The notes beneath the pieces are model-generated. The model was given only the letters and a program-made list of their open reading frames with translations. It was not told the origin of the DNA and searched no databases. DNA of 64,000 bases. It comes from Octopus vulgaris (Eukaryota). Made by a program: the position numbers and the translations under genes. Below, piece after piece: positions 131 to 63,765 of this stretch (positions are counted from its first letter, which is position 1; the number at the start of each line of letters is the position of its first letter). The stretch covers positions 51,646,001-51,710,000 of the forward strand of contig OX597823.1 of assembly GCA_951406725.2 (NCBI GenBank), written 5' to 3'.

Positions 131-487
131 TAATGATAAATCTCAGAGCGAGTTATAAACAGTAGCGGTAACACATCGTGACGCATATTTGCCATTTGAA
201 TATGGCTAACCCCTAAGGGTGGATGCTACTGTAGTTTGTAGTCCCAGGAAGATACCTCCTCTAGCTGGCTATGATTGTCACACGCCGATGATAGGTAAAT
301 ACCTTGAAACTCGAGTCCGTGTGTGTCATAAGTTGAAGACGCGAAGGATGACTTCCCTTCACAAATACTAATAGGGCACAGAAAGTGTGTCTATAGCCAG
401 CTGGAGGAGGTATCTTCCTGGGGCTACAAACTACAGTAGCATCCACCCTTAGGGGTTAGCCATATTCAAATGGCAAATATGCGTCAC
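131..487 (+). mobile_element. Non-autonomous Penelope-like/retrozyme-like element (family P1): inverted partial copy plus forward HHR-bearing copy, in (TA)n
   Basis: 178-272 is the near-perfect reverse complement of 393-487. An HHR lies between the arms and (TA)n flanks both ends. It shares motifs (tagccatattcaa-tggc, ccttgaaac..gtccgtgtgtg) with 42717-43565. Confidence 0.75.
279..323 (+). ncRNA. Minimal type I hammerhead ribozyme motif (core CCGAUGA, U4C variant)
   Basis: cacacg-CCGATGA-t-aggt-aaat-acct-t-GAAA-ctcgag-TC-cgtgtg. Stem I is cacacg/cgtgtg, stem II aggt/acct, stem III the palindrome ACTCGAGT, and the GUC cleavage triplet ends at 317. Confidence 0.75.
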
Positions 488-509
488 TATATATATATAT
501 ATATAATAA

Positions 510-670
510 TACAATGCACATTTAAACAATGTGGTAAAACTGTGCAAAAAGTAGTACTTGAATGCACAAAAGGTAGAGTAATATACTTTTCATTAACCTG
601 CAAAATCATCACACGACCGTTACTCAGAGTTTCACGTTCCCATTCGTCGAACACTTGTAATGAAAACTGA
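510..670 (-). mobile_element. PLE-like short element (family P2) with decayed HHR at ~616-655
   Basis: Minus strand reads agtgt-TCGACGA-atgggaacgt-GAAA-ctctgag-TA-acggt. The flanking sequence (agtagtacttgaat..aggtagagtaatat) resembles 22915-23140. Confidence 0.6.
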
Positions 671-744
671 ATTAAGATTGTAGTTGTGCGCGTGTGTGTG
701 TGCGTGCGTGCATGCGTGCATGGGCGCGTGTATGCGTGAGTATA

Positions 745-59019: not shown

Positions 59020-60462
59020 TGATGGTCATAATGATGATAATCATAAGGAAGTTGGTAGCAGTTGTAGATTTGGTGAGGAAGATAACAACGACCGTGGTTG
59101 TTTTTGTTACTATTTACATGCAAACATACTCCCCGAATCCCAACCGACCATACTGATATATCTTATTCTTTGTTGTTGTCAATCTATGTATTTGATTGAA
59201 ACAAATTGCAAGAAATCTGGAAGAATGAAGCGTAGTCGTTCCCTTGAGATTGGTTAGAATAGTGGAGAATATTTTCTGGTAATCCTGCAGAGCATTTAAA
59301 TAACAGTCTGAGATATTGTTGCAGACAACAGACTTCAAAAACTGACACTGTGTCAAATAAGACAAGAAAGTAATTGTGTGTCTTGAGATACAAAAAGAAA
59401 TATACAAGGTTAGTTTTGAAGTAATAATGCCACACGCTAGTTTAGACAAAATAGCTAAATGGATAACATATTGGGCCTAAAAACTCGCAGGTATTGTGCT
59501 ATGGTCTACTGCAGGTTTTTATTGTGTTACTATAAAAATAATTTGCTCTAAATTGCATCAGTTCACTTTGAGAGATGTATAATACCTCGGAAAATTGCCA
59601 TCATAGACTGAAGCTCTATGTAAAAGATTTCTCTGTCAGCTAATTCAAGACATGAAATTGAAGTACTTGATCTTAAGAGACAATGATATTACACTATATC
59701 TGCTATAATATCACATGTTAAAATAAATCTAGATATAAGCAATATATTCATAACCTGCTCTGTTATTTACTTACTGTTTTTTTTTTTCTTTCTGTGTTAT
59801 TATTGTTTGTTTGTTTTTTTTTTTTTGCATACGTTATCTTGTGATGCACATGGACACAACACTTGAAATGTTACCCACAGTCATAGGGTAGTTTGAATCA
59901 TTCTGCAATTAGTCTTACCACAGTGACTCAACTAAAGTTAAATAAAACCTTTGCTTGTGTCCATCAGCACTACCCAACCCACAGGGCAATTCTTCTGCTC
60001 CATAGCTACTTTAACCCATAAGCTTTTATATTAGCCATATCTGGCTCAAATATTCCGCATGTTTTATTTTCAAACTGCCTGAATGTAGTATGTTACACTT
60101 ATCACACAATGACATTCTAAATATAAACAATCACTTCATTAAAATTCCTAAGCTTCAAGATAATGTATGATTGATTCAAAACATTATGAATAAATAAGCA
60201 TTAAATTTGATAGATAAATCTGAATGTTAAAAGGTTAAAACAACTTCCATTACATCGGTAGCTAATTCGATGAACACTGGTTCCTGTGATGCCCAGCATT
60301 ATGTAAGCCCTACTGAGTGACTGGTCTCTCAGTTAGGCTAATGGAAGGAATTATTTTCATTGGATAATTACGGTCATTGCAACTAGTGTATAGCTTTCTC
60401 CATGCCTTACTGAATGCATTACAAAAATGTAGATATACACTATTAAAATTGGTGATCATTTT

Positions 60463-61190
60463 CAGGCCGAGCAAAGCCTTGTGAGTGGATTTGGTAGACA
60501 GAAACTGAAAGAAGCCTGTCGTATATATGTATATGTGTGTGTGTGTGTATGTTCGTGTGTATATGTTCATGTGTCTGTGTTTTTCCCCCCAACATCGCTT
60601 GACAACCGATGCTGGTGTGTCCCTGTAGCTTAGCAGTTCAGCAAAAGAGACCAATAGAATAAGTACTAGGCTTACAAAGAATAAGTCCTGAGGTCAATTT
60701 GCTCGATTAAAGGTGGTGCTCCAGCATGGCCACAGTCAAATGACTGAAACAAGAAAAAAGAGTAAAAGAGTAAAGAGATTTTCAGTATAAACATTGATAC
60801 TCAATCCAACTATGACTGACCATCAAATTATGTGCATACTGTCTTATATTTTAAGACCTGTCATACAAAATTCAGTGCTTTAAAAACTGTATATATCGTG
60901 CAGGCATGGCTGCATCGTAAGAAGCTTGTTTTCAAACTACATGGCTCTGAGTTCAGTCCCACTGCATGGGACCTTCGGCAGCTGTCTACAACTACAAACT
61001 CAGGCTCACCAAAGCCTTGTAAGTGGATTTGGTAGACAGAAACTGAAAGAAGCCCATCATTTGTGTGTATGTGCATTGTGTGTGTGTCATTGTGTCTGTG
61101 TTTGAACCCCACCACTGCTTGACAACCAGTGTTAGTGTGTTCACATCCTCATTACTTAGAAGTTCAGCAAAAGGGACCAATAGAATAAGA
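60463..61190 (+). mobile_element. Two SINE family B copies (60463-60776, 60898-61190), CpG-decayed
   Basis: aaagccttgtgagtggatttggtagacagaaactgaaagaagc and family B tail. Confidence 0.85.
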
Positions 61191-62709
61191 TGGCCACTTT
61201 AGAGAGAAAAATGAAAAACAGCATTAAAAAAACATCTACTCAACTTGATTGAAAGAGATCTGCTATGTAGCTGAAGAAATAAGTGGTGTAAATGATCTGC
61301 ACAGGAATCTGAATCAATTTTCTTAATTCACCAAATTATTACTGGCAAATGTCACTTTTTTCTCTCTTTAATTTATTTCTTTGCTAACTCACATGTTTGA
61401 AATAATAAAAATTATAAGAATATGAACAAATATAGTCATGCCGTTAAGAAGTTTTGCATCACAGTCATATAATTCCAGGTCTGATTGCAATGTGTAGTGC
61501 CTTAAGCAAGAGATTTTTACTGCAGCTTTGAGTCAACCAATGTGTTAGAAGATTTATTTATTTATTTATTTTACTATTTAGAGATGACAGAGGGGTGTAT
61601 ATGGTACTTTTTATTTTCTGGGCTTCTGGGAGTGGTGGAAGCTATCCTCAACATAGACACCTAAAAAGAATATTTGCAACAGGCTGAACTCCTCTACATG
61701 CTCTCAAAGCCTATCACCTCAGAACACAGAACTTAGAACTCAAAAGGCCAGAATAAATACAGAAAGGTAACCTGAATGACCTTCTTGAAATTCTACCAAT
61801 TCACCATCCTGAACCAGTGCTTTACTTTAGTTATACCCAAAGGATGAAAGGCAAAGTTGACCTTGCCAAAAATTAAGCCTAGAATACAAAGAGCAAAATC
61901 AAATACCACAAGGGTACTTAATTGGTAAGTGAAAAATGAAAAAGCTCATCATATGTATATGTGGGGTACAAATACCTATCTTTCGATATCTATAATTAAA
62001 TTTATATGCATATATATTTGTGTGTGTGTGTGTGTGTGTGTGTGTGTGCATGCGATTATGCATGTCTGTGTATTTACTATAGTATATTGGTAGAAACTTC
62101 ATGTATAGTTGCATCCCTTCACTTCAAGTCATGCACGTAGCTATATTTGAAAATAATTCCCTGCATCAAGCTAACTGGGAGGCCAGTCCCTCAGCAGAGC
62201 TTACTGCTTTGAAGGGGTTTTTATGCCCCAAAAATTTACCTCAGGACTTATTTTTAAAGCCTGGTGTTTATTCTGTAGGTCTCTTATATTGAACCACTAA
62301 GTTACAGGGACATAAACAAACCATCACCAAGTGGTGATGGTAGTGGGGCAAACACAAAGACACACACCATACATAGATACATATGGACATACATATATAT
62401 ATATCATTTAGAGAAAAACCTCTATTAAACAATTCAATAAAGAAAGATGTTATTCACACTATATAAAAAACATATACTATAAAAAAGCCTTATTCTAAAA
62501 ATCAATAAAGTACAATAAATAGTAAATAGTAGTAGTAGTAATATATTGTGAAATTTGATTTAAAATTGTTAAATTGAATTTTTCCCTGTAAGTTTTGGAA
62601 TTATATTCCCTACTACTACTATTATTATTATTGTTATTATTATTATTATTATTATTATTATTATTATTATTATTATTATTATTATCATATATATATATAA
62701 ATATAATTC

Positions 62710-63765
62710 TTTCCACAATGTCCGAATTGTTCTCGCCATTGGAAAAATATTATCCAAAAAATGAAAATATTTCAAAATGCTTAATAGACATAAAATTAAA
62801 TTTGCATTTTCTAATAGCCGAAACCTCACACAAATTATAGTAGCACACAACGCGAGTAAGTTAAGTAATTTCCAAATGATGGATCAGCAATAATTAGTAT
62901 GCAGCACGGAGTTTTGTCAGTGAAGAGGTCACGGTCTCAAAGTGACGAAAATATTTTGGCAAATCAAATTTAAATGTTGAAGTGAATCTAATGGTTTTTG
63001 TGTGTTGCTTAAATGGCTTATAAACACCTTCCATGCTGATCTCAGATCAGGTCACTTGCTATGCAAGTACATCTCCGTAATAATTAGTAATGATGTTAAT
63101 ATAATTAACCAAACTAGGAGTGTGAGAAATTGCTATAGCAGAAGCACTACTCAAAGGGAAGCAACCGTAACTAACTCAAATGTGAGATTAAGAAGGGAAG
63201 ACAAGAATACTAGAAAATGCAGTACCCAGAATGTCATCAATGGAGATAGAAGAAATAACCTGGAGAATAGGCAAAATAAATTAGAGATTACCCTTAATGA
63301 AACCAGCATAGAAAATAATATTAGAATTAGAAGAGCTGATATTTTGTGATTGCTCAAGGAATAGACAATGTACTTTAAACTTCGAAGGTAAGATTAAAAA
63401 TGTGGTTTACAGGTGCAAAGTTGCATCAAAAGACAAAGAGTATTTTTATATAGGTGCCATCTCACATTTTATTAAACAAAGAATAGCTAACCATGAAAGT
63501 TCTTTCAAGTATAGTGAGAAAAAATTATACTAGCCTTTGTATAATTAGTTTGGTCACTGAAAGATAGTAACAAAATATATTCAATTGGTTAGGGTATTAT
63601 TAGTAAGGCTAAACTTTATAGAATAGGGGGTAAAAGGTGTGACTTATGCATAGGAGAATGTACCAAATTTTCACTGCTAAAATTAAACTAATAAACACAT
63701 GACAAGAACGTGGTGTATGATGCCTTCCTTAAAGAAAATTTACATTTAAACAATTCAAAGAAACC
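62710..63765 (+). pseudogene. Penelope-like element ORF remnant: RT-EN linker and GIY-YIG endonuclease
   Basis: NRHKIKFAFSNSRNLTQIIVAHN (~62780-62852), then CDCSRNRQCTL..KNVVYRCKV..YFYIGA..KQRIANHESSF (~63345-63510), then GKRCDLCIGE (~63630-63660). Stops and frameshifts are present. Confidence 0.85.
62913..62963 (+). ncRNA. Hammerhead motif of family P5 (core GUGAAGA; 3-8 pair broken)
   Basis: tttgtca-GTGAAGA-g-gtcac-ggtctcaaa-gtgac-GAAA-atat-TT-tggcaaa, within insert 62900-63078 bounded by aataattagta repeats. Confidence 0.6.

Follow-up and report, generated by a model that had tools for sequence, protein, structure and literature searches.

A 64,000-nt stretch of the Octopus vulgaris genome (G000:C10:51646001-51710000, in a 2.8-Gb assembly; hereafter the window), microsatellite-rich and with a GC content of about 35%, raises the question of how the hammerhead ribozymes carried by its repeats can differ at core positions 3 and 8. 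An earlier note on this DNA had described about 10 type I folds whose positions 3 and 8 always covary as a Watson-Crick pair, and had attributed this covariation to selection for catalysis. Our analysis favors, with a probability of about 0.72, a model in which these motifs would be type I hammerheads located at the 3' ends of Penelope-like elements (PLEs) and in short tandem retrozymes, their 3-8 pair being kept by a selection that allows swaps.

All ten 7-nt cores cited by the note (10/10) are present at their positions. Type I folds were defined by three helices around N3-N4-G5-A6-N7-N8-A9 / G12-A13-A14, A15.1-U16.1 and H17, and were searched for with a relaxed descriptor leaving positions 3, 4, 7 and 8 free. 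Seven of the sites are full type I folds; the copies at 650, 23038 and 23072, which are members of one family (B) according to homology, are decayed. The cited sites are held by five families (A, B, C, D and E). A sixth family with U3-A8 (J, at 57927), not listed in the note, is decayed as well. Pairing is Watson-Crick at eight of the ten sites. It fails at 650 (TCGACGA), a U3·G8 wobble inside a C3-G8 family (five of six sampled copies are C3-G8), and at 62920 (GTGAAGA), a G3·G8 mismatch inside a G3-C8 family. Furthermore, TCGATAA (43359) is the only one of its kind among 100 listed copies with A8; therefore its C4 is private.

A first descriptor, which recovered three of the cited sites, was rejected as too strict. 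The strict descriptor gave three matches with a score of at least 13 in the window versus 0.25 per shuffle (20 block shuffles), and the relaxed one 26 matches in 600 kb (60 evenly spaced 10-kb stretches) versus three in the same DNA reversed. An Rfam scan of the window gave 272 matches, mostly microsatellite hits; the 150 that were listed include no hammerhead. Since copies ranked by BLAST favor the core of the query, copy counts were taken from exact patterns with free core positions; several were read by hand from the first 100 copies listed.

Clustering of descriptor matches in 1.39 Mb yielded 14 multi-locus clusters. One of them (apparent CTGACAA 'families') is an artefact of the inverted junctions of family D, and a cluster of short interspersed nuclear elements (SINEs) with an A3·G8 fold was treated as chance (score 8, helix III of 1 bp). 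The 12 remaining credible families are all pairable at positions 3 and 8 (12/12): six are C-G, four U-A, one G-C and one mixed, and the three groups containing U-A are repeats distinct from one another and from the G-C family. Family cores thus truly differ, and their consensus is not the plain CUGANGA that would have contradicted the note. Among the copies found by homology in the 600-kb sample, 22 of 45 belong to U-A or G-C families that escape a C3-G8 search, so that a census based on CUGANGA would overlook roughly every second copy in this genome, as the note had anticipated. A rough extrapolation gives about 2x10^5 hammerhead-derived copies genome-wide.

The insertions share an inverted 5'-truncated arm, partial tandems, (TA)n or microsatellite targets and 3' ends that form two clusters some 45 nt apart, features described for PLEs (PMC8557442). 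All families have a palindromic helix III. Families A (352-362-nt unit) and C (493-nt unit) are non-coding tandem units, each with one type I hammerhead, and from their sequence appear to be retrozymes. Family A runs reach nine units in a row. The location of type I hammerheads on PLEs and retrozymes, which the note had put forward, is therefore supported.

The G3-C8 core is that of family D. In the window, this family is represented on the minus strand by the 3' end of an autonomous PLE (pseudo-long terminal repeat, pLTR; 43813..44019) flanked by (TA)n, with the core GUGAACA at 43998-43992, a helix III AAUAUU and a predicted cut 3' of U43962, and on the plus strand by a copy (62899..63082) with the minority G3·G8 core GUGAAGA (62920-62926). 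Exact-pattern copies number 6,279 with C8 versus 387 with another base. G3 is found in 98 of 100 listed C8 copies; the non-C8 copies (100 of 387 listed, hand count) comprise 43 U, 39 G and 18 A, none being C3-G8. Moreover, 24 of 25 loci picked solely on their upstream sequence are G3-C8.

At locus L259, an open reading frame (ORF) of 671 aa contains YVDD, a CX3CX2C linker and YIGET; its end precedes the G3-C8 core by 1,001 nt. The near-identical C-terminal 239 aa of another locus (L090) match the Pfam GIY-YIG domain (PF01541); a Pfam search of the longer family D ORFs gave no match. The protein has 284 relatives, the best of which (57% identity) is labelled Octopus vulgaris, and a metagenome scan for cores beside them gave one weak locus. 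All six ORF-bearing copies are G3-C8, the state being read for each locus; five of them differ at 0-5 of 660 nt and the sixth at about 36. Hence, the swap stems from source elements whose last mobility is very recent. A single ORF with reverse transcriptase (RT) and GIY-YIG and a hammerhead in a 3' pLTR are both found, together with inverted pairs and two 3'-end clusters. Hence, family D is the 3' end of a recently active autonomous PLE encoding RT plus GIY-YIG. The CX3CX2C linker has been tied to the Neptune or Nematis clades (PMC8557442).

Several other observations concern family D. An apparent A-U/G-C covariation in its helix II was attributed to CpG decay and set aside, in view of the frequent mixed states. 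Three copies in tandem, 3.4 kb apart (G000:C2:171239230-171246116), have a common G3·A8 core, which suggests a local duplication of a decayed unit. The 5' ends of short copies (window 44019 and 62899; L090, L230-L254) are concentrated some 22 nt upstream of the core, where an AG follows a pyrimidine-rich stretch that also looks like a branch point (719 exact copies of the stretch). This arrangement is reminiscent of Drosophila Penelope, in which an intron ends beside helix I. In eight copies GAG replaces CAG or TAG at this site, perhaps through a G derived from a cap or through the end of a spliced exon.

The second line of evidence comes from A2, a single lineage of 356-362-nt retrozymes with amplified U3-A8, U3·G8 and C3-G8 subfamilies. 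Its window insertion (42716..43570, plus strand) consists of an inverted arm (42716-42933) and a 356-nt tandem (42951-43566) with two U3-A8 cores, UUGAUAA (43003-43009) and UCGAUAA (43359-43365), a helix III ACCUAGGU and predicted cuts 3' of C43036 and C43392. Genome-wide, 1,209 A2 copies have C3, the 100 listed all being CCGAYGA, and 281 do not (100 listed: 45 U-A and 55 U·G, by hand count). The copies lacking G8 number 110, of which 100 were listed: 96 are U3-A8 and four, from three loci, are C3·A8. U3·G8 is thus a real amplified state in this lineage. Furthermore, the tandem and inverted arms of an insertion share the same 3-8 state, which implies that U·G was inherited from source elements. 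Helix III stayed palindromic through a double change, from ACCUAGGU to ACCAUGGU.

In a tree built with core positions 3, 4, 7 and 8 masked, the C3 clade (support 100/97) is nested inside U·G copies (99/95), which themselves branch from U-A copies. Placing U·G as a side branch was rejected (approximately unbiased (AU) test, p=0.012). Three truncated rows were dropped from one of the A2 trees and two long-branch rows from another; family G, which has no BLAST match to A2, is invalid as an outgroup. Divergence between the arms of one insertion is 1.21% (42/3461) for U-A, 0.64% (20/3127) for U·G and 0.28% (14/5082) for C-G, after removal of three copy pairs with more than 6% mismatch (Fisher p=0.02 for each step, sites being treated as independent). 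It follows from these values that the U-A subfamily would be the oldest, then U·G, and C-G the youngest. The latter also has the highest copy number and the longest arrays, runs of at least four units being found in 7 of 31 C-G insertions versus 0 of 99 U3 insertions (hand-grouped; p=2.5e-5). This difference may be confounded by age or by the helper element, and the family A1, with canonical CUGAUGA but runs of at most two units among the 100 rows listed, counts against a simple rule linking pair and array. A2 relatives were also found in contigs of sequencing runs under four organism labels, the runs not being on record as RNA.

The mechanism that we propose is as follows. PLE proteins likely copy the short tandem retrozymes. 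The palindromic helix III would pair between two copies to form a double hammerhead, whose cleavage, predicted to be slow and to occur mainly as dimers or with the help of a protein, would be followed by ligation to give linear or circular unit RNA. Since genomic copies keep whole hammerheads and their 5' ends miss the predicted cut, the templates would be uncleaved or circular RNA. Selection on source elements would purge 3-8 mismatches, yet be loose enough to let a wobble pass. Such a weak need for fast cleavage may have let one retrozyme lineage go from U-A to U·G to C-G and an autonomous PLE fix G-C.

Folding agrees in part with this scheme. For the window tandem and for one U·G tandem, the fold of lowest energy is the double hammerhead; in a C3C4 tandem and a family C tandem, it is less stable than the minimum by 4.8 and 2.4 kcal/mol, respectively. 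The dimer helix III has a probability of 0.33-0.90 in five of eight tandem constructs, this value varying with construct boundaries. Published in vitro assays show that cleavage is restored by the C3G/G8C swap (PMC9901934; PMC11167929, the latter with a PLE hammerhead). However, several results weigh against the proposed model. In the other three of the eight constructs the dimer helix III has a probability near 0, and helix II is near 0.04 in all three C3C4 constructs, where C3C4 is a predicted competitor for the GG of this helix. None of 281 A2 match ends (overlapping loci not de-duplicated; 168 ends at the query edge) and 1 of 53 family D match ends lie at the predicted cut, with no pile-up there. 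U3·G8 was amplified, although single changes in the core motif left little activity when another hammerhead was subjected to deep mutational scanning (PMC9901934). The 39 G8 among the 100 listed non-C8 copies of family D may represent a minor mismatched source lineage, a high-copy SINE cluster carries a weak A3·G8 fold, and the root of the A2 lineage beside its C3 clade was not rejected (AU p=0.19 and 0.17).

These results could also be explained if the fold were kept as a signal for the binding or folding of PLE proteins rather than for cleavage, the variant cores being nearly inactive. Whole hammerheads in genomic copies, 5' ends that miss the cut and the amplification of U·G and U4C states would then be expected. 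Moreover, catalytic mutants of a lizard PLE had no effect on insertion in vitro, its cleavage was protein-dependent and no RNA-seq ends lay at the cut (PMC11167929). Together with the roughly 165 exact copies of the U3·G8 subfamily, the behavior of these mutants indicates that the note overstated its case in equating covariation with selection for catalysis. Yet the 3-8 pair forms in the active core and is pairable in 12 of 12 families, C3·A8 is almost absent from A2 (4 of about 1,209), and retrozymes of comparable length from mussel and axolotl are able to cleave (PMC7229834), which makes a pure signal function unlikely. The cores might instead be neutral hitch-hikers, fixed by chance in source elements and paired as a result of shared ancestry and CpG decay. 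Independent events are indeed few, copy counts not being events; some private changes (TTGACAA, CCGACAA) fit CpG decay; and since families were found by a hammerhead descriptor, their invariant positions are circular evidence. Positions 3 and 8, however, were free in that descriptor, G-C requires two transversions, the three U-A-containing groups and the G-C family are distinct repeats, and in A2 the state shared by tandem and inverted arms points to inheritance from sources. We consider this explanation very improbable.

The A2 ladder, though real, could have run backwards, from C-G through U·G to U-A, or its last step (UU to CC at positions 3-4), which changes two adjacent bases, may have been copied over from A1 through template switching instead of arising by point mutation. 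The trees do not fix the root with statistical confidence; no C3-U4 intermediate exists among the 1,209 C3 copies, position 4 being C throughout; and A1, which shares 87% with A2 over the 47-nt hammerhead, has a CCGAUGA subfamily. Nevertheless, U-A copies hold the root in both rooted A2 trees and show the highest within-insertion divergence, C-G insertions showing the lowest. A reversal or a switch is thus rather doubtful, though less so than a signal function, and the sequences point to U-A, then U·G, then C-G as the probable order.

Many traits of these elements are already known, namely the PLE hammerheads and retrozymes themselves, U3-A8, U4C and a basal U·U in helix II. The minimal type I hammerheads of metazoan PLE pLTRs (PMC4209133) are alike in their 3' position after an RT plus GIY-YIG ORF, the extra base after A9, G10.1-C11.1, a short palindromic helix III, opposite-strand pairs 100-700 bp apart and the many families per genome. 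They also share U3-A8 (about 1,300 in Schistosoma mansoni), and one Saccoglossus representative is U3·G8. The U3-A8 cores that the note called non-canonical are hence present here but already published for PLE hammerheads (PMC4209133, PMC3088659). Unlike the core of the recently active family D, none of the 56 representatives in Fig. S3 of PMC4209133 has G3-C8 or C4, although the descriptor used there would exclude both. Metazoan non-LTR (long terminal repeat) retrozymes (PMC7229834; bioRxiv 10.64898/2026.07.22.740005) include tandem, self-paired 350-390-nt mollusc units with one type I hammerhead each, a dimer-enhanced cleavage, which is only predicted here, and a proposed PLE origin. Our subfamilies differ from them by the 3-8 pair in a dated series and by one unit of 493 nt, which exceeds the published range (about 170-400 nt). 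U3-A8, U4C and U10.1·U11.1 occur naturally, as here, whereas G3-C8 appears only as an engineered mutant in the accessible parts of PMC3088659, PMC9901934 and PMC11167929.

A basal U·U in helix II is likewise present in the axolotl HHR_Amex2. Lunse, Weinberg & Breaker (RNA Biol 14:1499, 2017) reportedly surveyed about 150,000 small-stem-III hammerheads, said to be linked to PLEs and to cleave as dimers. Our literature search found no report of a natural G3-C8 core, which that survey or figures and supplements outside the search may list, nor of octopus hammerheads or of a dated wobble intermediate, most subscription papers lying outside this search. Compared with the literature found, the new elements are G3-C8 as the standard core of a recently active autonomous PLE and the A2 series through a wobble, self-cleavage being predicted in both.

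We tentatively propose, at somewhat less than even odds, that these are the first natural high-copy G3-C8 hammerhead, carried by a very recently active PLE, and a dated compensatory walk from U-A through U·G to C-G, the retrozyme having become about seven-fold more numerous and having started to insert as long arrays once C-G was back. If so, the rise in copies and arrays after C-G would fit a better cleavage yielding more circular template. The role of hammerheads in PLEs is still open (PMC8557442, PMC11167929). Here, natural near-isogenic subfamilies differ in catalytic pair, copy number, age and array length; therefore cleavage rate can be compared directly with transposition success. Moreover, an amplified wobble intermediate is a rare direct record of compensatory evolution.

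The window carries other members of these families. An A1 retrozyme insertion (132..490, plus strand; 352-nt unit) has an inverted 5'-truncated arm (132-272), a direct arm (269-490), a C3-G8 core with U4C (CCGAUGA, 285-291), a palindromic helix III (309-316) and a predicted cut 3' of C317. Among the 100 listed of 178 A1 matches, 55 cores are CUGAWGA, 41 CCGAUGA and four UUGAUAA, and none is mismatched. Two relatives in the A superfamily have their 3-8 pair flipped again: in L243 (minus strand, near 2823 counted from the end), a U3-A8 copy has 77% identity with the C3-G8 family A1, and in L080 a C3-G8 array has about 80% identity with U3-A8 copies of A2. The putative young retrozyme of family C (1854..3400, plus strand; inverted arm 1854-1931, direct part 2944-3400) has the core CCGAAGA (3174-3180), a long helix II, a helix III ACAAUUGU and a predicted cut 3' of A3237; 16 matches, the window included, are 100% identical over 126 nt, with a 493-nt spacing. 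Family B comprises a decayed minus-strand copy (548..664; core UCGACGA, 650-644), whose U3·G8 we read as a private decay of a C3-G8 family, and a head-to-head pair (22885..23140, both strands) with a minus-strand core CCGACGA (23038-23032) and a decayed plus-strand core CUGAUGA (23072-23078).

A PLE-type 3' end of family E (34553..34767, minus strand) has the core CUGACGA (34694-34688), unlike most of its family, which is CCGACGA, and a helix III ACGU. The decayed copy of family J (57891..58077, plus strand) has the core UUGAAAA (57927-57933), has lost G12 and carries a short inverted arm. Outside the window, a CCGAAGA fold lies 3' of another GIY-YIG ORF (L166) and a degenerate E-related fold downstream of a PLE-like ORF (L126). 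In A1, A2, B, C, E and the L166 PLE, U4C is either the predominant state or one of the leading ones (window 285, 3174 and 23038). U·U at the base of helix II, a known variant unmentioned in the note, occurs in families A1, A2, C, F and N (window 292-305, 3181-3225 and 43010-43024). A high-copy SINE-like repeat (6658-6842, 10101-10261, 46528-46669 and others) contains a weak hammerhead-like string (ACGACGA, 1-bp helix III) that is likely due to chance but may be a relic. Lastly, two fragments (929-1705, minus strand, and 28611-28926) resemble, by their motifs, RT of the LINE (long interspersed nuclear element) type; a Pfam search of the former gave no match and the latter has a weak tblastn match.

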